DNA from: Escherichia coli
GTDB taxonomy: Bacteria > Pseudomonadota > Gammaproteobacteria > Enterobacterales > Enterobacteriaceae
Strand: one strand, 5' to 3'
DNA length: 64,000 nt
NCBI RefSeq assembly: GCF_029227855.1
Contig: NZ_CP074356.1
Shown: positions 7,735-64,000 of the stretch, piece after piece
Layout: the number at the start of each line of letters is the position of its first letter
Position numbering within the stretch: the first letter of the stretch is position 1
Translations under genes and position numbers: made by a program
Notes under the pieces: model-generated
Database searches by the model: none
The model's input: the letters and a program-made list of their open reading frames with translations, nothing else
Told to the model about the DNA's origin: nothing

Positions 7735-10047
7735 TCAATGCAACTCATCAAGTTTTCTCATCGCTTGTTCCCGTATTGCGCGCGTCTTATCGTTAAGCGC
7801 CAGCTGCCGAACTAAATCCAGTTCAGGGTTAACAAGCTCTAACGCCAGCAAAGGATCACGTTTCAGCCTCGCCTTTAATACATCAACTGGAAAACGGGGA
7901 TTATTCATCGCCACAATCCACCACTCGGGATCAATTTCTGCCGCCAGTACTGCAGGCGGTGTGTGGCGGTTGTTAAGTGCGCCGAACTTGAAAAATGTGA
8001 GATTGCTTTTCGCCAGTGTACTCCACCATATACGATCCGGTTGTTTTGCCAGTTTATCCAGTTGTGCTAACGCATCGGGGTCTAGTGCATAATAAACACG
8101 TAACGCTTCGTTAACCTGCGCACGGGAACTGTTTTCCTGCCTCAGAAAAAACTTCGCCCAAATATCATTGCGTGGCGTGTTTTGCTGTAATTCCTTGAGA
8201 ACAACAGCGGGTAAATTATCCCAACTAATTAATGCACTCTCTAAAAAGTCCCAGTCGTCCGAACGTATCAGAGAGGTGGCATTTAATAGCATCTGGTCAT
8301 CAACTTCACCGTAGCTGATAAGCTCAGACAAAATCATATCAGCGCTGGTTTCATATGCATCTGAATCTGCTTTGGGATTATTTTTCCGATGCGATAAAGC
8401 ACGTTGCCAAATTTTTTGTTTCATCGACGTGCTCAGATACTGATTTTTCGCCAAATTACTCCACCCCTCAGGATCGTTGAAACGTGTCAATAACCGTTGT
8501 AAAGCAGCGTCAGAGTGAATTACCTGCATATCCCGACAGCAAAAGTAGGCAGGGGATTTTTTCTCCATCTTTTTAACAAAATTAAACTGTAAGTTATCTG
8601 GCAATGCTAAAAATAACACACGTATTAGATCATCGTCATTCTCGAATTTTTGGTATAAATATACTGCTATTTTGTCACTCTCTTGTGGCGTCATCCGCAA
8701 CAATTGACCATGGTGTTTCATCTCTGCCAGCTTTGACGCTAAGCTTGTGACAACATCGTTTGATGAATCGTTCGCCAACTGCATTGCCTGATTGTAGGTG
8801 AGTTGTCCTCCAGCACCGACCTGACGAATAGAGAAATCATCACTGCGGATATAGCCATCAATAATGGATTCGGGCAATAACCACGCATCTTTATAAAGCT
8901 CCTGAATGATCATATCCCAATCTCTTTTCGCCAGAGTCATGACGATATCCAGAGGGAGATTTTCACGTAGCGCAAGATTCAACGGACCGACACCATCAGG
9001 TAGATGACTCATTCGCGTCATTATTTCGACAGAGAGCGGTTCACGGTCGAGCAACCCCAGAACAACAGGCTGGTAACCCAATTGCTGATCGGTCAACTCC
9101 AGAATCTCATTGTCAGGCATATATCTCGCCATACTTGCAATCGTTTGTCCATCATTGCTATTAATAAGTTGTTTGCGTAGGTTAGCTGAAATTCCTTTAA
9201 GCCTTGGGAGAGTTCGCATTATGGCAAGATCAAATGTCGCAATGTCTCGTCCTTCAAATGCAGCAACGTTGCCTTCATCCAGCATTTGTAATTCCTGCAC
9301 TAATTCAGGTGAAGGCTTAGGGCGAAACAGCGCTTCTTTTTTCATCTGATTACAGACATTCCCTGCTATGCGAATATTGCTTCGCTTAAAAATTTCTTTC
9401 AGAGCATCTTCATCATTTATTAGGCCCCAATAATATGCATCAGGATTTATTATCGTCAGCGCTTTTTTGACATTTTCAGTGTCATTTTTGTCACTCGCAC
9501 GGACCATGAATTCACTATTTGTCGAAGACGCAACAACAGGTGCGATTATATCATTGATAAATATCCCGCGCGCATTAATACTCCCCTTAATCGTAGACGG
9601 ATTATCGTAATATGAGTCGATAAATACCAGTCCACTTGCATTTATCGAACCGGTAATTAACAGTGGTGAATCCGTAACTATATTCGTTGCCGTCACGTTA
9701 CCGAGAATAACCCATGGATTAGAAAGAGAGAAAGTGGAAATATTACCTTTGACTGTCAAATTGCCAAGAACAATCAATTTTTGATTACTCTCTATATTAC
9801 CTTCTACCACTAAATCGCCACGATGCACTTTCCAGTCCGATGCAGATAAACCGAAGGGGACAAGATTCACGCTACTGTTGATAGCTTGTTCAACTTGTTG
9901 TTTATCTTCAGCGGTAGCCGCAGAAAAAAATGGTTCAATATCAACTGCATTTGCAACACATCGAAGTTCCGCCTGTACTGGAAGACTCAGCATAAACAGG
10001 GGAAGTAAACCTATCCAGCTGCAAATCCTGGGCTTAAACATATGCAC
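7735..10047 (-). CDS. ydbD: Uncharacterised protein YdbD with N-terminal signal peptide
   Basis: 770-aa ORF with signal-peptide-like N-terminus (MHMFKPRICSWIGLLPLFMLSLPVQA); position next to ydbC. Confidence 0.85.
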   Translation of the reverse strand: MHMFKPRICSWIGLLPLFMLSLPVQAELRCVANAVDIEPFFSAATAEDKQQVEQAINSSVNLVPFGLSASDWKVHRGDLVVEGNIESNQKLIVLGNLTVKGNISTFSLSNPWVILGNVTATNIVTDSPLLITGSINASGLVFIDSYYDNPSTIKGSINARGIFINDIIAPVVASSTNSEFMVRASDKNDTENVKKALTIINPDAYYWGLINDEDALKEIFKRSNIRIAGNVCNQMKKEALFRPKPSPELVQELQMLDEGNVAAFEGRDIATFDLAIMRTLPRLKGISANLRKQLINSNDGQTIASMARYMPDNEILELTDQQLGYQPVVLGLLDREPLSVEIMTRMSHLPDGVGPLNLALRENLPLDIVMTLAKRDWDMIIQELYKDAWLLPESIIDGYIRSDDFSIRQVGAGGQLTYNQAMQLANDSSNDVVTSLASKLAEMKHHGQLLRMTPQESDKIAVYLYQKFENDDDLIRVLFLALPDNLQFNFVKKMEKKSPAYFCCRDMQVIHSDAALQRLLTRFNDPEGWSNLAKNQYLSTSMKQKIWQRALSHRKNNPKADSDAYETSADMILSELISYGEVDDQMLLNATSLIRSDDWDFLESALISWDNLPAVVLKELQQNTPRNDIWAKFFLRQENSSRAQVNEALRVYYALDPDALAQLDKLAKQPDRIWWSTLAKSNLTFFKFGALNNRHTPPAVLAAEIDPEWWIVAMNNPRFPVDVLKARLKRDPLLALELVNPELDLVRQLALNDKTRAIREQAMRKLDELH

Positions 10048-56768: not shown

Positions 56769-57800
56769 ATGATCGCTGAACTGTTTACAAATAATGCGCT
56801 TAATCTGGTCATTATTTTCGGTAGCTGCGCAGCATTGATTCTGATGAGCTTTTGGTTTCGCCGCGGAAATCGTAAAAGAAAAGGTTTTTTATTCCATGCG
56901 GTGCAATTTTTAATCTACACCATAATTATCAGTGCTGTTGGTAGCATCATTAATTATGTTATAGAAAACTATAAACTCAAATTTATCACCCCAGGCGTTA
57001 TCGATTTTATCTGTACGTCCCTGATTGCGGTTATTCTGACGATTAAGCTATTTCTGCTGATTAATCAGTTTGAAAAACAGCAGATTAAAAAAGGTCGCGA
57101 TATCACCAGTGCGCGGATTATGTCGCGTATCATCAAAATCACCATTATTGTGGTGCTTGTTCTGCTTTATGGCGAACATTTCGGCATGAGCCTTTCTGGC
57201 TTGTTGACCTTTGGTGGTATTGGTGGTCTGGCTGTCGGTATGGCCGGTAAAGATATTCTGAGTAACTTCTTTTCCGGGATTATGCTCTATTTCGACCGTC
57301 CTTTTAGTATTGGCGACTGGATCCGTTCACCGGACAGAAATATCGAAGGTACAGTATCGGAAATTGGCTGGCGAATTACCAAGATTACGACTTTTGATAA
57401 TCGTCCGTTGTACGTACCGAACTCGCTGTTTTCGTCAATCAGCGTAGAAAACCCAGGACGAATGACCAACCGGCGCATTACCACGACCATTGGTTTACGT
57501 TATGAGGATGCGGCAAAAGTGGGCGTTATTGTCGAAGCCGTACGTGAGATGCTGAAAAATCACCCGGCCATTGACCAGCGACAAACCTTACTGGTTTATT
57601 TCAACCAGTTTGCTGACTCCTCATTGAATATTATGGTTTATTGCTTTACCAAAACCACGGTATGGGCTGAATGGCTTGCTGCACAGCAAGACGTTTATTT
57701 GAAGATTATCGATATTGTACAGTCACACGGCGCGGACTTTGCCTTCCCCAGCCAGACGCTGTATATGGATAACATTACACCGCCGGACCAGGGTCGCTAA
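56769..57800 (+). CDS. ynaI: MscS-family low-conductance mechanosensitive channel
   Basis: 343-aa ORF with N-terminal TM helices and MscS-like core. Confidence 0.88.
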
Positions 57801-57850
57801 ATCAGACATCACTGGCGTTATCCACAAGGGTAACGCCAATTCCCATCACA

Positions 57851-59464
57851 TCAATGCTTCACAATATACATAGTCCGACTGTACGCCACATCTTCCGGGT
57901 TATTAATGGGATAACCTTTCAGCCACGGCTTGATTAATCGTCCATTGGTATATTGATAAATTGGTGCAATCGGTGCTTGCTCCATGAGGATTTTTTCTGC
58001 CGCATTGTAATCGGCATTACGCGCTTTAACGGTATTTTCCGTTGATGCCTGGGCCAGTACTTTGTCGTATGCCGGATTGTTAAAGCGTGAAATATTCCCT
58101 GAATGCGTTGACGTTAACAACGTAAGGAAAGTGGAGGGTTCATTATAATCCCCTACCCATGAGGCGCGGATAACATCAAAATTGCCGGTGTTACGGCTAT
58201 CGATATAGGTTTTCCATTCCTGATTCTGCAATTTAACATCTACGCCAAGGTTCTTTTTCCACATCGATGCTACAGCAATCGCAATTTTTTGATGGTTTTC
58301 TGAAGTGTTATACAAAAGCGTCAGCTTCAGCGGTTTTTGCGGACCATAACCAGCTGCGCTCAACAAAGTTTTTGCCTGCGCATTCAGTTCTTCCTGACTC
58401 ATTTGTTCAAACGGCGAAGGCTCCGGCGTAAAACCGGCAGTAACATCTGGTGTAAAATGCCACGCTGGCTTTTCCCCCGTCCCCAACACTTTTTCGGTCA
58501 TCAGGCGGCGATCTATCGTCATACTTAATGCCAGGCGAACACGCTGATCGGCCGTCGGCCCTTTTTGCGTGTTAAACGCATAATAATAGGTCCCGAGCTG
58601 CGGCGGCGTATAAACCTGCCCCGGAATATCCTTCAACAGCTTCTGATACATATTTTTCGGGAAGGATTCGGTGATATCAATATCCCCCGCGAGATAACGC
58701 TTAGTGGCTGCGGATTCCTGATTAATTGGCAGGAAGGTCACTTTTTGCAGCACCGTTTTGGCGTTATCCCAATAATGGGTATTCGGTACCACGACCAGTT
58801 TTTCATTGACTACGCGCTCTTTAAGAACATAAGCGCCATTACCGATCAGTTTTCCGGGTTTCGTCCACTCTTTACTACTTTCTACGTTGGCTTTTTGCAC
58901 CGGGAAGAAGGCAAAGTTAGCGGTTAAATTCACAAACCACGGCAACGGTTTATCAAGCTGGATTTTCAAAGTATGGGCATCAACTGCGGTGACGCCAAGC
59001 TGGTCAGGCGTGGCTTTACCATCAATAATCGCCTGTGCGTTGTTGATTCCCGCCAGCGCGGCAAACCATGCAAATGGCGACAATGTTTTTGGGTCCACCA
59101 GACGTTGCCAGCTGTAGACAAAATCTTGCGCCGTTACCGGTGTGCCATCCGCCCATTTTGCGTTATCGCGCAAGGTAAAAGTCCAGATACGGTTGTCATT
59201 ACTTTTCCACTGAGTCGCAACGCCGGGGACAATCTCCCCTTTCTCGTTCTGATTCACCAGTCCTTCAAACAGATCGCGAATGACCTGAATCTCCGGCAGG
59301 CCCACGGCTTTAGCGGGATCCAGCGACGCTGGCTCATCTTTAATGTGGCGCACCAGCTCCTGCTTCTCTGCCAGTACTGTGCCGCTCGGAACTTCAGCAG
59401 CATACGAAAGAGAAATGCTGCTGACCAACAGCGCACAACACGTGACTGAAACAGAGTGCTTCAT
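57851..59464 (-). CDS. mppA: Periplasmic murein tripeptide-binding protein
   Basis: 537 aa from MKHSVSVTCCALLVSSISLSYA (signal peptide); OppA-like solute-binding protein family 5. Confidence 0.9.
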   Translation of the reverse strand: MKHSVSVTCCALLVSSISLSYAAEVPSGTVLAEKQELVRHIKDEPASLDPAKAVGLPEIQVIRDLFEGLVNQNEKGEIVPGVATQWKSNDNRIWTFTLRDNAKWADGTPVTAQDFVYSWQRLVDPKTLSPFAWFAALAGINNAQAIIDGKATPDQLGVTAVDAHTLKIQLDKPLPWFVNLTANFAFFPVQKANVESSKEWTKPGKLIGNGAYVLKERVVNEKLVVVPNTHYWDNAKTVLQKVTFLPINQESAATKRYLAGDIDITESFPKNMYQKLLKDIPGQVYTPPQLGTYYYAFNTQKGPTADQRVRLALSMTIDRRLMTEKVLGTGEKPAWHFTPDVTAGFTPEPSPFEQMSQEELNAQAKTLLSAAGYGPQKPLKLTLLYNTSENHQKIAIAVASMWKKNLGVDVKLQNQEWKTYIDSRNTGNFDVIRASWVGDYNEPSTFLTLLTSTHSGNISRFNNPAYDKVLAQASTENTVKARNADYNAAEKILMEQAPIAPIYQYTNGRLIKPWLKGYPINNPEDVAYSRTMYIVKH

Positions 59465-59521
59465 AAGTTTCCCTCTAACCGACATTAAAATTGATGCGTA
59501 ATTATTTGTTTCGCCTTAAAG

Positions 59522-59551
59522 AAATGCAAACAACTTCCATCAAAAAAGTGA
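59522..59551. repeat. 30-bp motif, copy 1 (aaatgcaaacaacttccatcaaaaaagtga), in the pgrR-mppA spacer
   Basis: 28 of 30 identical to copy 2 at 62633-62662. Confidence 0.7.
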
Positions 59552-59800
59552 CAAAGGAAGCATCAAATGTTTTAAGTATCAATATATCAAATCAGATTTA
59601 GTGTAAATAATAGTCTCCAAAATGCGGTAAAGCACATAGAACTCCGAACACTACGTTCGGGCTTCGCACGTTCAAACCCGTTTTCGGTATCATAATCAGC
59701 ATCTGTCGCCATTGTACGAAGAATAAAAAATGACCAAAACGTTGAAAGGAACTGAGAATACGTTAAGAGAAGAATTAAATTAATGTATCAGCAAGTAGTG

Positions 59801-60700
59801 CTAAACAGCACCTTTATACTTCAGCCTATCTATAAATAATGAGAATGCCGAGCCAGCATGTCGACGGTGTGGATAGTACAGGTGATAACCGGGTAAATCT
59901 GGTGTGAATTTATCCAAAACACGTATCAGTTTTTTTTCTTTAATAGCCCGCTCAACCTGATCATAAGGTAGATACGCCAATCCATGCCCATCAATTGCAG
60001 CATCAATGATCAGGTCTATCGTATTCAGTAAAAGCTGACCTTCCATGCGAACACGAACTTCACGTCCACCGCGTATTAATCTCCAGCGATTTGCTGTACC
60101 CGATGTGGGAAGATACAAATTAATTGCCTGATGATCTATTAATTGTGACACTGACGTTGGAGCACTTCGACGAGAAAAATAATCCGGTGAACCAACAATA
60201 GCCATTGGTATATCTGGCCCGATTCGAATGGCGATCATATCTTTATCCATCTCCCCACCCAGACGGACGCCTGCATCAAAACGTTCAGAAACGACATCGG
60301 TCAAACCATAATCAATGGTAAGCTGGATATCAATTTCAGGATGCGATTTCAGGAATGTGCGCATAGCTGGTAACAATATCGTTTTTGCTGCATGTTCTAC
60401 AGTAGTAATACGTATTGTCCCGGATGGGCGGTTCTGCAGATCGCTCAGGGATGTCAGGGCAGAATCTATGTCATGCAACATAGGGCCAAGAACAGACAAA
60501 AGATGCTCGCCCGCTTCAGTGGGTACAACGCTGCGCGTGGTTCGCGTCAGAAGCCGCAATCCCAATCGTTCTTCTATACGGCGCACTATCTGGCTTAAAG
60601 CTGACTGCGCCATGCTCAGGCGGGCTGCTGCGCGAGTGAAGCTACGCTCCTCTGCAACGACGACAAACGCCATCAGATCAGCGATTTCTTCACGCTTCAT
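59801..60700 (-). CDS. pgrR: LysR-family regulator of murein peptide degradation
   Basis: 299-aa ORF with N-terminal LysR HTH; divergent from ycjY. Confidence 0.88.
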   Translation of the reverse strand: MKREEIADLMAFVVVAEERSFTRAAARLSMAQSALSQIVRRIEERLGLRLLTRTTRSVVPTEAGEHLLSVLGPMLHDIDSALTSLSDLQNRPSGTIRITTVEHAAKTILLPAMRTFLKSHPEIDIQLTIDYGLTDVVSERFDAGVRLGGEMDKDMIAIRIGPDIPMAIVGSPDYFSRRSAPTSVSQLIDHQAINLYLPTSGTANRWRLIRGGREVRVRMEGQLLLNTIDLIIDAAIDGHGLAYLPYDQVERAIKEKKLIRVLDKFTPDLPGYHLYYPHRRHAGSAFSLFIDRLKYKGAV

Positions 60701-60724
60701 TCAGTATCTCCATACAATCTATTA

Positions 60725-60738
60725 ATCATTTAAATGAT
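60725..60738. promoter_or_regulatory. Perfect 14-bp palindrome ATCATTTAAATGAT in the pgrR / ycjY divergent promoter region (candidate LysR-type operator)
   Basis: Palindrome of LysR T-N11-A type 25-40 bp upstream of the pgrR start; direct repeat GGTCTAATCA x2 immediately adjacent. Confidence 0.4.
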
Positions 60739-60837
60739 AGGTCTAATCATAATTTAGGGTCTAATCAACTTAATGATCAATATCTATAGTGATATCACCA
60801 ACCGCCAAAACGAACCGACAACTCCATGAGGAACGGA

Positions 60838-61758
60838 ATGATGAATAATAAAGTCAGCTTCACTAACAGCAATAATCCAACCATCTCTTTGTCTGCAGTG
60901 ATCTATTTCCCTCCAAAATTTGATGAAACCCGTCAGTATCCGGCAATTGTGGTATCTCACCCAGGTGGGGGCGTTAAAGAGCAAACGGCCGGAACCTATG
61001 CCGAAAAACTGGCGGAAAAGGGATTTGTCACTATTGCTTATGACGCATCTTATCAAGGTGAAAGCGGCGGCGAGCCGCGTCAGTTAGAAAACCCATACAT
61101 TCGTACTGAAGACGTCAGTGCCGTGATTGATTACCTGACAACGCTTTCTTATGTCGACAATACCCGAATTGGTGCGATGGGAATTTGTGCCGGTGCAGGA
61201 TATACAGCCAATGCTGCAATTCAGGATCGCCGCATCAAGGCCATCGGTACTGTTAGTGCGGTCAATATTGGTTCGATGTTCCGTAATGGTTGGGAAAACA
61301 ATGTGAAATCTATTGATGCCCTACCATACGTTGACGCGGGTTCAAACGCCCGAACCAGCGATATTAGTAGCGGAGAATACGCCACTATGCCACTGGCACC
61401 AATGAAGGAGTCCGATGCGCCGAACGAAGAACTGCGTCAGGCCTGGGAGTATTACCACACCCCTCGCGCGCAGTATCCAACAGCACCGGGTTACGCTACT
61501 TTGCGCAGCCTTAACCAGATTATTACCTATGATGCTTACCATATGGCGGAAGTGTACCTGACTCAGCCGATACAGATTGTGGCGGGCAGCCAGGCAGGGA
61601 GCAAATGGATGAGTGACGACCTGTACGATCGAGCATCAAGCCAGGATAAACGCTATCACATTGTTGAAGGCGCAAACCATATGGATCTTTATGACGGCAA
61701 AGTCTATGTGGCTGAAGCAATTTCAGTATTAGCTCCGTTCTTTGAGGAAACTCTGTAA
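60838..61758 (+). CDS. ycjY: Alpha/beta-hydrolase (dienelactone hydrolase-like) protein
   Basis: ORF 60826-61758 (310 aa); start at MMNNKVSFTNS chosen to give about 306 aa, uncertain by a few codons. Confidence 0.85.
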   Translation: MMNNKVSFTNSNNPTISLSAVIYFPPKFDETRQYPAIVVSHPGGGVKEQTAGTYAEKLAEKGFVTIAYDASYQGESGGEPRQLENPYIRTEDVSAVIDYLTTLSYVDNTRIGAMGICAGAGYTANAAIQDRRIKAIGTVSAVNIGSMFRNGWENNVKSIDALPYVDAGSNARTSDISSGEYATMPLAPMKESDAPNEELRQAWEYYHTPRAQYPTAPGYATLRSLNQIITYDAYHMAEVYLTQPIQIVAGSQAGSKWMSDDLYDRASSQDKRYHIVEGANHMDLYDGKVYVAEAISVLAPFFEETL

Positions 61759-61828
61759 TGAAACATATTCAAATCCGTAATAGTGATATGGCCTGGCATA
61801 TTGCTGCCAATAATCTGGGAAAAGTTTC

Positions 61829-62467
61829 ATGAAAAATGTACTGATTCTTGGTGCTGGCGGTCAGATAGCCCGCCATGTGATTAATCAACTGGCAGATAAA
61901 CAAACCATTAAACAAACTTTATTTGCCCGTCAGCCAGCAAAAATCCACAAACCCTATCCCACTAATAGCAAGATTATTATGGGGGATGTACTGAATCATG
62001 CAGCACTGAAGCAGGCCATGCAGGGACAGGATGTTGTGTATGCCAACCTTACGGGGGAAGATTTAGATATTCAGGCAAATTCAGTGATCGCTGCGATGAA
62101 AGCCTGTGATGTTAAACGTCTGATCTTTGTTCTTTCCCTCGGTATTTATGATGAAGTTCCAGGAAAATTTGGCGAATGGAATAATGCAGTTATTGGTGAG
62201 CCCCTAAAACCATTCCGCAGGGCTGCGGATGCAATTGAGGCTTCTGGACTGGAATATACAATTCTTCGCCCTGCCTGGCTGACTGATGAAGATATTATTG
62301 ATTATGAGCTTACCTCACGCAATGAACCATTCAAAGGTACGATCGTATCACGTAAGAGTGTCGCAGCATTAATCACAGATATCATCGATAAACCTGAGAA
62401 ACACATTGGTGAGAATATAGGCATCAATCAACCCGGGACTGATGGTGATAAGCCCTTCTTCATGTAA
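61829..62467 (+). CDS. NAD(P)-binding Rossmann-fold protein (NmrA/atypical SDR-like), intact 212 aa
   Basis: MKNVLILGAGGQIARHV (GxGxxG/A NAD-binding motif); lies between ycjY and mpaA where K-12 is annotated with ymjC/ymjD fragments (from memory). Confidence 0.8.
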   Translation: MKNVLILGAGGQIARHVINQLADKQTIKQTLFARQPAKIHKPYPTNSKIIMGDVLNHAALKQAMQGQDVVYANLTGEDLDIQANSVIAAMKACDVKRLIFVLSLGIYDEVPGKFGEWNNAVIGEPLKPFRRAADAIEASGLEYTILRPAWLTDEDIIDYELTSRNEPFKGTIVSRKSVAALITDIIDKPEKHIGENIGINQPGTDGDKPFFM

Positions 62468-62632
62468 ATCAATTATATAGCTACCATCGTACTGTACTAT
62501 GTGCAGTACGATTTATTAAACTTATTAAGGTGAACTGATCAATCAGATGCGATTAACATGTGTAGAACCAGTAAGAATAAAATACGCCATGTATATAACA
62601 TTACGACAATTCTAATATCTGCACATCAATGA

Positions 62633-62662
62633 AAATGCAAACAACTTCCGGCAAAAAAGTGA
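62633..62662. repeat. 30-bp motif, copy 2 (aaatgcaaacaacttccggcaaaaaagtga), about 100 bp upstream of mpaA
   Basis: 28 of 30 identical to copy 1 at 59522-59551. Confidence 0.7.
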
Positions 62663-62757
62663 TACAAGATAGATGACATAGCGTTGAAGAAAAGGATTTG
62701 ATAATCCGCAAAATTTGCACAACACTGCCTGTAATACTTCCTGAACCAGAGACGATC

Positions 62758-63486
62758 ATGACCGTAACTCGCCCACGCGCCGAACGCGGCGCATTTCCGC
62801 CCGGAACAGAACATTACGGACGTTCATTATTGGGCGCGCCGTTAATCTGGTTTCCTGCCCCTGCAGCCAGCCGCGAAAGTGGTTTGATTCTGGCTGGCAC
62901 TCACGGTGATGAAAACTCTTCGGTCGTCACGCTCTCCTGTGCTCTGCGAACGTTGACACCTCCTTTGCGCCGTCATCATGTGGTGCTGTGTGTGAATCCT
63001 GACGGCTGCCAGTTGGGGTTACGGGCCAATGCTAATGGTGTGGATTTAAACAGAAACTTTCCGGCGGCGAACTGGAAGGAAGGTGAAACCGTTTATCGCT
63101 GGAACAGCGCCGCTGAAGAACGTGATGTCGTATTGCTGACAGGTGACAAACCTGGCTCCGAACCTGAAACCCAGGCGCTGTGCCAGCTTATACACCGCAT
63201 TCAACCTGCCTGGGTGGTCTCATTCCACGATCCGCTGGCCTGTATTGAAGATCCCAGACACAGCGAATTAGGCGAATGGCTGGCCCAGGCGTTTGAATTG
63301 CCTCTGGTAACCAGCGTCGGTTATGAAACACCTGGCTCTTTCGGTAGTTGGTGTGCAGATCTCAACTTGCATTGCATCACCGCAGAGTTTCCACCCATCT
63401 CCTCCGACGAAGCCAGCGAAAAATATCTCTTTGCGATGGCAAACTTGCTGCGCTGGCATCCTAAAGATGCAATTCGCCCGTCGTGA
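62758..63486 (+). CDS. mpaA: Murein peptide amidase A (gamma-D-Glu-meso-DAP amidase, M14 family)
   Basis: 242 aa from MTVTRPRAERGAFPPG; zinc carboxypeptidase-like HGDE motif (GTHGDENSS). Confidence 0.88.
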   Translation: MTVTRPRAERGAFPPGTEHYGRSLLGAPLIWFPAPAASRESGLILAGTHGDENSSVVTLSCALRTLTPPLRRHHVVLCVNPDGCQLGLRANANGVDLNRNFPAANWKEGETVYRWNSAAEERDVVLLTGDKPGSEPETQALCQLIHRIQPAWVVSFHDPLACIEDPRHSELGEWLAQAFELPLVTSVGYETPGSFGSWCADLNLHCITAEFPPISSDEASEKYLFAMANLLRWHPKDAIRPS

Positions 63487-64000
63487 ACTGAAGCGCCGGT
63501 TCCACATCTACCGCCAGCCATGTCGGTCCGTCAAGATCGGCGAAACTGACCTGCGGCACCAGCGGTAAAGCGGCGCTAATGGCCCGAGAGGTACACAACA
63601 TGCAGCCCAGCATCAGACGAAAACCTTGTGCACGCGCTTCAGTCGCCAGCGCCAGCGCTTCCGTCAGACCACCGGTTTTATCAAGCTTAATGTTAACCAT
63701 CTCATAGCGCCCTTTCAGCGCCTTAAGATTGCTACGAGTATGACAACTTTCATCAGCACAAATCGGTAACGGATGAATAAAATTCTCCAGCGCCGCATCG
63801 TCCTGCGCAGGAAGCGGTTGTTCAAGCATCGCAACGCCTAAATCTGCCAATAGCTGGCAACGCGCCGCCAACCCTTCTGCACGCCAGGATTCATTTGCAT
63901 CAACGATCAGCGTCGCATCGGGCACAGCTGTGCGAATTGCCACCATCCGCTCACTGATAAGATGGTTATCCAGCTTCACTTTCAGTAATTTCGCGCCTGC
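63461..64000 (-). CDS. ycjG: L-Ala-D/L-Glu epimerase (enolase superfamily), C-terminal part; gene continues beyond window end
   Basis: Open minus-strand frame from the window edge reading ...AGAKLLKVKLDNHLISERMVAIRTAV...FTTGELHL; 26-bp convergent overlap with mpaA. Confidence 0.85.
   Translation of the reverse strand, partial: AGAKLLKVKLDNHLISERMVAIRTAVPDATLIVDANESWRAEGLAARCQLLADLGVAMLEQPLPAQDDAALENFIHPLPICADESCHTRSNLKALKGRYEMVNIKLDKTGGLTEALALATEARAQGFRLMLGCMLCTSRAISAALPLVPQVSFADLDGPTWLAVDVEPALQFTTGELHL

Follow-up and report, generated by a model that had tools for sequence, protein, structure and literature searches.

Between ycjY and mpaA, this Escherichia coli genome carries an open reading frame that K-12 does not share, which raises two questions: is it the intact form of a gene broken in K-12, and what does its position beside a murein tripeptide amidase gene mean? 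An earlier note on the window (the whole stretch of 64,000 nucleotides analysed here, from contig NZ_CP074356.1) described a complete 212-aa Rossmann-fold ORF on the same strand as both neighbours, took K-12 ymjD and ymjC to be two fragments of it within a PgrR-regulated operon, and regarded the window as carrying the undamaged ancestral gene of an oxidoreductase co-transcribed with mpaA. The gene order at the locus is pgrR (minus strand), ycjY, the reductase gene (hereafter the SDR gene) and mpaA (all plus strand), then ycjG, with the following features:

59522-59551, no strand: left 30-bp direct repeat AAATGCAAACAACTTCCATCAAAAAAGTGA, identical to 62633-62662 at 28 of 30 positions
59552-59800, no strand: left tail of the inserted block, running from the repeat to the pgrR stop codon; homology to the Citrobacter flank stops at 59551
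59801-60700, minus strand: pgrR (ycjZ), LysR-family, 299 aa, with Pfam HTH_1 and LysR_substrate matches; annotated pgrR in an identical strain
60838-61758, plus strand: ycjY, alpha/beta hydrolase 1, 306 aa, with Pfam Peptidase_S15, DLH and Hydrolase_4 matches
61758-61832, plus strand: hyd2 remnant (the equivalent of the ymjD stub), 24 codons; MKHIQIRNSDMAWHIAAN corresponds to Hyd2 residues 1-18 of O157 and SC475
61829-62467, plus strand: SDR gene (NAD_binding_10), 212 codons from ATG to TAA; product identical to WP_000800177.1
61968-62632, no strand: segment missing from K-12, from blastn and the junction sequence, with a 1-nt ambiguity of its ends
62468-62538, plus strand: spacer common to the Citrobacter cassette, ending at the ribosome-binding site (RBS) region and start codon of a classical SDR gene absent from E. 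coli
62486-62512, plus strand: hairpin with a 12-bp stem and a 3-nt loop, 19 nt past the SDR stop codon, followed by TTATTAAAC
62539-62632, no strand: right tail of the inserted block, 94 bp, AT-rich
62633-62662, no strand: right 30-bp direct repeat AAATGCAAACAACTTCCGGCAAAAAAGTGA; the K-12 deletion ends immediately to its left
62633-62757, plus strand: native mpaA upstream region, 125 bp, homologous to the Citrobacter mppA-mpaA spacer and kept in all architectures including K-12
62758-63486, plus strand: mpaA (murein tripeptide amidase), NCBIfam NF007897 (MpaA) at 478 bits against a cutoff of 157; a resident gene, outside the cassette

The description of the ORF itself was borne out. Its translation, which starts MKNVLILGAGGQIARHV, matches Pfam NAD_binding_10 (PF13460) over the full length of the profile (residues 8-189 on profile positions 1-184 of 184; 184.1 bits against a cutoff of 27.2, E=3e-54) and is identical to the protein of PDB entry 3qvo at 209 of 212 positions (98.6%; full length, E=3e-138); it is no chance ORF. 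The gene is real, intact and ordinary, and it can no longer be presented as a new observation, being annotated in thousands of genomes and having a near-identical structure solved. In strain JNEC-KY178, which is 100% identical, RefSeq labels this ORF 'SDR family oxidoreductase' (WP_000800177.1), and an identical protein sequence is known from at least 1,000 contigs.

The classical SDR motifs TGxxxGxG and YxxxK are absent from the protein, which has LGAGGQIA instead and is therefore an atypical SDR; a Pfam profile search returned no match to adh_short. The glycine-rich, dinucleotide-binding N-terminal motif G8-A-G-G11-Q-I-A14 is invariant or nearly so across 31 homologues, and the window protein keeps all 41 invariant and 29 near-invariant residues of the family (including G8-A9-x-G11 and R34). 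The signature SLGIYDEVPGKFGEWNN is likewise kept, with the invariant Y107 and K113 spaced as Y-x5-K inside SLGIYDEVPGK. A match to the NmrA-like family (PF05368; 41.8 bits, cutoff 27) covers only residues 2-100, on positions 3-104 of the 298 in the profile, and this partial similarity is apparently what the name 'NmrA family protein', given to 3qvo by its depositors, reflects. The gene has a GC content of 43% (GC3 37%), the gap between it and mpaA 34%, mpaA 55% and the whole window 49.7%. Its dN/dS amounts to 0.04 in comparison with the copies from Citrobacter and plasmids and to at most 0.08 within E. coli; the low dN/dS and the retention of invariant residues suggest that the gene is functional in this genome. 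Against function stand the loss of its conserved partner Hyd2 and the fact that the species is clearly shedding the gene, both of which are taken up below.

As the earlier note stated, K-12 MG1655 does have ymjD (21 aa, b4673) and ymjC (60 aa, b4525) annotated between ycjY and mpaA. A blastn alignment of MG1655 with the window maps the K-12 lesion: the two are colinear except for 61968-62632, a clean deletion of 664-665 bp, and K-12 has no intact ORF at this place. What K-12 has lost comprises SDR codons 47-212, the hairpin and all remaining sequence of the inserted block; on the right, the deletion stops no more than one base from the edge of the insert, where the right repeat begins. YmjC accordingly consists of SDR residues 1-46, with a shared start codon, and 14 out-of-frame residues KMQTTSGKKVIQDR encoded by DNA normally found upstream of mpaA; PGAP labels this remnant 'NAD-dependent dehydratase, missing C-terminus'. 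The reading of the two K-12 genes as fragments of the reductase thus holds for ymjC, which has its first 46 codons, and fails for ymjD. The latter had to be rejected as an SDR fragment, since YmjD (MKHIQIRNSDMDWHIAAN-NLG*) is residues 1-18 of a separate alpha/beta hydrolase, Hyd2, joined in frame to the final codons of Hyd2 by an internal deletion of 867 nt.

The gene hyd2 was recognised from O157:H7-type loci (also L003 and L098), which have ~880 bp more between ycjY and the SDR gene, with an annotation as a second alpha/beta hydrolase. It is intact in SC475 (310 aa), frameshifted in O157:H7 and present in 1,272 of 5,426 complete E. coli genomes. We considered whether the extra O157-type hydrolase could be a tandem duplication or an insertion and rejected both: YcjY and Hyd2 are paralogous hydrolases with 42% identity, the pair is conserved in distant bacteria, and the window keeps both ends of hyd2 in frame. 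Indeed, the window carries the same 867-nt in-frame deletion as K-12, with an identical junction, and the K-12 state is therefore derived from the window state. A separate deletion of 12 bp between ATGA repeats lies just 5' of the SDR start codon, and a T-to-A change in the window removes the stop codon of the stub, giving the 24-codon ORF at 61758-61832. The ATG of this stub overlaps the ycjY stop codon (TAATG), and its TGA overlaps the SDR start codon (ATGA). In this window the reductase is thus left without Hyd2, its most conserved partner, and may no longer serve its original pathway.

Comparison with related bacteria indicates how the reductase came to lie beside mpaA. In three relatives, namely Citrobacter, a lineage of the Klebsiella oxytoca type and a further enteric lineage, the divergent genes mppA and mpaA directly adjoin each other, ~185 bp apart, with ycjG, tpx and tyrR coming after mpaA; pgrR, ycjY and the SDR gene are absent from the mppA-mpaA locus of all three. 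Segments 58002-59551 and 62633-63997 of the window align to the Citrobacter locus (the latter to L090 5875-7240) with an overlap of 30 bp. This overlap is the 30-bp direct repeat of the window, of which Citrobacter has a single copy (L090 5875-5904), and the inserted block is therefore 59552-62632. The four-gene block, with an intact SDR gene, also occupies this site in Escherichia sp. E4742, between the same two repeats; this strain, reached via the protein-cluster route, has a nucleotide identity of 90.6-95% to the window in this region. The insertion is therefore older than E. coli, and the ancestral form of the block is that with four genes. What the window holds is consequently an undamaged ancestral gene in the sense that the SDR gene predates the K-12 lesion and is intact at the same site in E4742, but the locus around it is damaged, hyd2 being deleted just as in K-12.

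The block holds only pgrR, ycjY, the hyd2 stub and the SDR gene, with no integrase or transposase, and a search for terminal inverted repeats at its ends found none. Blastn revealed no homology between its tails (59552-59800 and 62539-62632) and other copies of the cassette, and a duplication of 30 bp at the target is not accounted for by any standard mechanism of transposition. We propose that, before E. coli diversified, a cassette would have entered the spacer that separates mppA from mpaA, two divergent genes for murein tripeptides, with a duplication of 30 bp of target sequence. The uninterrupted target in relatives, the target-derived direct repeats, the low GC content of the SDR gene and of the gap after it, and the unrelated contexts of other copies together characterise what, judged from these alignments, is in all probability a horizontally acquired insertion.

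Those other copies are sporadic. SDR homologues of ~83% identity occur in Citrobacter koseri, Klebsiella aerogenes, Raoultella, Enterobacter, Kluyvera and Serratia. Contigs of the C. koseri type have the order LysR, Hyd1, Hyd2, SDR, classical SDR and OYE flavoreductase, with amino acid identities in the range of 80-93% (LysR 88% to PgrR, Hyd1 93% to YcjY, Hyd2 88%, SDR 83%), and are found in two unrelated contexts, one with AlpA/replicase genes and one with ars/AKR, neither of them with mpaA. Nucleotide homology between the window and one such copy (L085) runs from 59802, at the pgrR stop codon, to 62538; window positions 61819-62538 correspond to L085 6003-6722, and the adh_short gene starts at L085 6724, exactly where homology stops. 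A tblastn search of the gap between the SDR gene and mpaA for adh_short and OYE remnants found none. The four-gene core is also carried by conjugative Klebsiella plasmids.

A scan of species-representative genomes, from which the best 80 of 105 loci were obtained, extends the picture well beyond enteric bacteria. Of these 80 loci, 29 place a Hyd2 orthologue (55-86% identity) next to the SDR gene, in Bacteroidota as well as in Alpha-, Beta- and Gammaproteobacteria. Afipia, Mesorhizobium and Hyphomicrobium possess the complete PgrR|YcjY-Hyd2-SDR arrangement. By contrast with Escherichia, mpaA, mppA and ycjG do not accompany the cassette in any of the other copies examined (C. koseri-type, plasmids and the best 80 of 105 loci). 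The cassette may accordingly be pictured as PgrR (LysR) divergent from YcjY, Hyd2 and the reductase, with a classical SDR and an OYE flavoreductase coming next in some hosts. On gene neighbourhood, the conserved partners of the SDR are Hyd2, YcjY and PgrR, and its link to mpaA is a secondary one, resulting from the insertion. The association with mpaA in the earlier note is accordingly overstated: the block was inserted into the mppA-mpaA spacer, and the cassette was not accompanied by mpaA in any copy examined elsewhere.

The subsequent fate of the block was followed in 5,426 complete E. coli genomes, 2,900 of which (~53%) have the SDR segment at a coverage of at least 80%. The K-12 deletion junction was found in 2,294. 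Approximate numbers for five states are as follows:

Four-gene block: 1,272 genomes (23%); ancestral, also in Escherichia sp. E4742
hyd2 deleted (window state): about 1,630 genomes (30%)
hyd2 and SDR deleted (K-12 state): 2,294 genomes (42%)
Block precisely excised: 173 genomes (3%)
Other lesions: the remainder (about 1%), including an IS1 insertion (H83) and SDR alleles of 162 aa and 171 aa

Empty sites were recognised with a synthetic query made of the left flank, one repeat and the right flank, which was matched whole in 173 genomes, where mppA is annotated and then mpaA. In one of these, CP131_Sichuan, the remaining repeat is a hybrid, with the diagnostic 'AT' of the left copy and the flank of the right copy, and the flanks are 100% and 99.8% identical to those of the K-12 derivative DH1; excision by recombination between the repeats is therefore indicated. 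For this genome, one of the 173, the same two observations speak against regarding the empty site as ancestral.

Decay would have proceeded in up to three steps. The 867-nt in-frame deletion in hyd2 would have produced the window state, leaving the 24-codon stub; a second deletion (664-665 bp), beginning at SDR codon 47 and reaching the right-hand limit of the insert, would then have produced the K-12 state, with ymjD and ymjC as scars; and in some strains the whole block would have been precisely excised via the two 30-bp repeats. The independently disrupted SDR alleles, together with a K-12 deletion present in 42% of genomes, argue that the SDR gene is dispensable.

It could then be asked whether the SDR gene of the window is intact merely for lack of time, a functionless relic of a broken cassette drifting towards the K-12 state. 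The deletion of hyd2, the repeated independent lesions in SDR, the proportions of genomes with the K-12 deletion (42%) or without the whole block (3%) and the absence from E. coli of the adh_short and OYE genes with which the fuller cassette continues would all agree with this. Nevertheless, we consider it unlikely: the gene differs from that of SC475 by 5 synonymous and 0 nonsynonymous changes and from that of O157 by 10 synonymous and 3 nonsynonymous changes, every family-invariant residue is kept, the exact protein recurs on at least 1,000 contigs, and ~30% of complete genomes keep the architecture of the window. Moreover, the in-frame hyd2 deletion leaves overlapping stop and start codons, through which translation of the SDR gene could still be coupled to that of ycjY. 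We favour a reductase gene that would still be functional in strains of the window type.

For K-12, the PgrR regulon is listed in the literature as ycjY-ymjDC-mpaA, ycjG and ycjXF-tyrR (PMC5934670; PMC3946193). The operon of this regulon that the earlier note named agrees with the listing of ycjY-ymjDC-mpaA in both papers (PMC5934670, PMC3946193). Overexpression of YcjY leads to filamentation (PMC3614548), and the protein has been labelled 'putative peptidoglycan degradation' (PMC12711010), a label that rests on the K-12 ycjY-ymjDC-mpaA operon listing.

In the window, the architecture downstream of the reductase is a different one. The SDR stop codon and the mpaA start codon are separated by 290 bp, which contain the hairpin, the RBS remnant of the missing classical SDR gene, the 94-bp AT-rich tail and the 125-bp native mpaA upstream region. 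The hairpin region (62460-62560) folds at -24.7 kcal/mol (z=-3.4), and two outer pairs of the stem co-vary, from A-U/U-A in E. coli to C-G/C-G in the Citrobacter copy. A simple consensus scan for promoters and terminators over 60600-62900 called no plus-strand terminator in the SDR-mpaA gap, nor the hairpin itself; the same scan found fewer promoter-like sites in 60600-62900 than in shuffled sequences and no promoter in the gap. The K-12 deletion has taken the whole of the gap as far as the native 125-bp region. Co-transcription of the SDR gene and mpaA in this genome would be plausible, but the earlier note overstated it, and the operon known from K-12 should not serve as a model for the architecture of the window.

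These observations bear on the possibility that the reductase is a genuine step of murein-tripeptide recycling, acting on a product of MpaA or YcjG and transcribed jointly with mpaA under the PgrR-repressed ycjY promoter, a step that K-12 would have lost. The SDR gene indeed has the same strand and order as mpaA, the block sits exactly within the mppA/mpaA/ycjG murein-peptide locus, and both the K-12 regulon listing (PMC5934670, PMC3946193) and the filamentation caused by excess YcjY (PMC3614548) could be read in this way. We nonetheless regard such a role as highly improbable. In every copy examined elsewhere, on plasmids and in many bacteria, the cassette has none of mpaA, mppA and ycjG beside it, and enteric relatives have mppA-mpaA-ycjG without the cassette; 173 E. 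coli genomes have excised the block precisely and 2,294 have destroyed the SDR gene; and the two genes are kept apart by a 290-bp gap in which lie the conserved hairpin and the native region upstream of mpaA. We infer that the link to peptidoglycan recycling is positional and not ancestral. As experiments reported for K-12 put mpaA and ycjG under the control of PgrR, a functional tie to murein-peptide metabolism may nonetheless exist.

A broader interpretation is put forward tentatively, at somewhat less than even confidence: PgrR-YcjY-Hyd2-SDR would be a self-contained mobile cassette for esters or lactones, unrelated to peptidoglycan; the K-12 regulon would in part be an accident of insertion; the K-12 deletion would have fused mpaA to the ycjY transcription unit; and PgrR control of mpaA would depend on the strain. 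If this is true, the K-12 deletion joined mpaA to the ycjY transcription unit by removing the hairpin-containing spacer, and PgrR control of mpaA should be strong in the 42% of genomes of the K-12 type, weak or absent in window-type and four-gene strains, and gone in the 3% from which pgrR has been excised. The reference strain for the PgrR 'peptidoglycan recycling' regulon, K-12, has a locus more eroded than any other common version, among the four or more states found in the species. As pgrR and ycjY belong to the inserted cassette, whose conserved partners are hydrolases and reductases and not murein enzymes, labels carried over from the K-12 context may represent guilt by accidental association, and the regulation of mpaA may vary between strains. 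The locus also offers a clean natural series for the stepwise decay of a gene cluster, ending in precise, repeat-mediated excision. The added value is modest: the locus is reread as an old inserted cassette with its states of decay, ymjD is reassigned to hyd2, and the link to mpaA becomes secondary.

What the reductase might do has to be approached through its relatives. Its product is, with good confidence, an NADP(H)-dependent reductase of the atypical SDR group (NAD_binding_10), encoded by the last gene of a mobile cassette that is decaying in E. coli; this assignment draws on sequence comparison, and the preference for NADP(H) in particular is suggested by the invariant Arg34 after beta-2 and by homology to the 3r6d/4hng group. 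YcjY matches PDB 5xb6 'YcjY' (E=4e-201), and a literature search for ycjY found no paper giving a biochemical function. NCBIfam models matched the SDR, YcjY, Hyd2, the classical SDR and the OYE below threshold only, the best being a UilS-type lactonase (75-87 bits for both hydrolases, against a cutoff of 400). In the pathway that we envisage, PgrR would control the ycjY promoter, the esterase/lactonase-like hydrolases YcjY and Hyd2 would open an ester or lactone substrate, and the reductase would spend NADPH on a carbonyl, a quinone or an activated double bond of the hydrolase product. The hydrolases would presumably act first and the reductase second. Of this putative NADP(H)-dependent reduction after ester or lactone hydrolysis, the evidence covers the parts concerning the fold and the cofactor motif.

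Among proteins of solved structure, that of PDB 3qvo, presumably a structural-genomics entry from Shigella flexneri, is practically the same protein as the SDR of the window, from which it differs by K48Q, V69I and G115V (window residue first); in the library searched, no paper cites the 3qvo entry. The nearest solved relatives after it are the 3r6d/4hng group, then ChuY/ShuY and BVR-B. The former (3r6d, 4hng, 4hnh and 4ipt, structural-genomics entries named 'NAD-dependent epimerase/dehydratase') aligns over SDR residues 2-211 and shares with the SDR GxxGQIA, Arg-Gln after beta-2, RPxWL and the C-terminal PGTxxDKP, but it is distant (E=2e-19 as against 3e-138 for 3qvo) and itself uncharacterised. 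BVR-B/flavin reductase (biliverdin-IX-beta reductase, 1hdo) and ChuY/ShuY (5guy, 5ffq) have the same single-domain Rossmann fold of the NAD_binding_10 type and, at ~205-215 residues, a similar length. Sequence similarity over SDR residues 2-189 is distant, weak but significant (E=4.5e-6 to ShuY/ChuY and 2.5e-5 to BVR-B), whereas the context of these proteins, the eukaryotic cytosol or a haem operon, is unlike that of the SDR. As a gene cluster, the cassette of E. coli differs from the Citrobacter-type copies in having neither the OYE nor the classical SDR gene, and no cassette enzyme reaches an equivalog cutoff (the NemA model gives 145 bits with the cassette OYE, against a cutoff of 403). The Citrobacter-type and Burkholderiales copies, in which a divergent LysR regulator is combined with a downstream classical SDR and an Oxidored_FMN (OYE) enzyme, resemble the LysR-controlled clusters for detoxification of xenobiotics and electrophiles that include an OYE of the NemA type.

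Two short features border the intact SDR gene, which encodes an atypical NAD_binding_10 reductase:

61756-61832: remnant of hyd2 (the second alpha/beta-hydrolase gene), a 24-codon ORF whose start and stop codons overlap both neighbouring genes
62486-62538: hairpin with a 12-bp stem, plus spacer, shortly after the SDR stop codon

The ATG of the hyd2 remnant overlaps the ycjY stop codon (TAATG), and its TGA overlaps the ATG of the SDR gene (ATGA). Judging from this arrangement of codons, the in-frame deletion within hyd2 may have kept translation of the SDR gene coupled to that of ycjY. The K-12 counterpart of the remnant stops at a TAA three codons earlier, yielding the 21-aa YmjD. Among the four-gene strains, in which hyd2 is present, the gene is frameshifted in O157:H7 genomes (E. 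coli O157:H7 Balcarce_14.2, locus L003, 2559-3489; 893 versus 892 bases in the compared segment) and intact in others, such as SC475. The O157:H7 frameshift is a further independent lesion of the cassette.

The SDR gene itself is also found in additional disrupted forms in E. coli (sequence match H83, NZ_CP122679.1; proteins P0041 and P0042): an allele carrying an IS1 insertion, a 171-aa form that diverges after residue 159 (388 member sequences) and one of 162 aa that begins at Met51 (332 member sequences). The junctions of the K-12 deletion lie at 61967/61968 and 62632/62633; on the right, the deletion stops within 1 nt of where the inserted block ends and the right-hand 30-bp repeat begins. 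The same 30-bp repeats are used by the precise-excision allele, in which the whole block is gone; the endpoint shared by deletion and excision may be a coincidence or may mark a recombination-prone site.

Downstream of the SDR gene, the 12-bp-stem hairpin is kept in the cassette copies of Citrobacter and Klebsiella plasmids, with two compensatory pair changes in the stem between copies. Next in the window comes AAGGTGAACTGA; in the alignment it falls on the ribosome-binding region of a classical SDR gene absent from E. coli. As a separate observation on the cassette, a 501-bp internal fragment of its OYE flavoreductase gene (7783-8283 of the Citrobacter koseri-type locus L085) occurs, mostly unannotated, on dozens of Klebsiella/Raoultella plasmids at 94.8% identity (matches H173-H185), and appears to be a gene fragment in wide circulation.

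Comparison with the close relative R13 suggests that recombination mosaicism surrounds the inserted block, because mismatches cluster in mppA (57783-59173; ~2.7%) and in the 5' half of mpaA (62856-63135; ~5%), while the block differs by only ~0.7%. Likewise, mpaA of the window reaches 99% identity or more in only 2 of 5,414 genomes, against 1,587 genomes for the SDR region. At its other end, mpaA overlaps the 3' end of the convergent ycjG by 26 bp (63461-63486), an overlap identical in the K-12 and Citrobacter annotations.

In a published pan-genome study, 'ymjC, putative oxidoreductase', a cluster name that could refer to any of the gene's alleles, was variably present, differing in prevalence by phylogroup (A 90%, B1 41%) and over-represented among lactic-acid-resistant meat-plant E. 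coli (PMC9602453).
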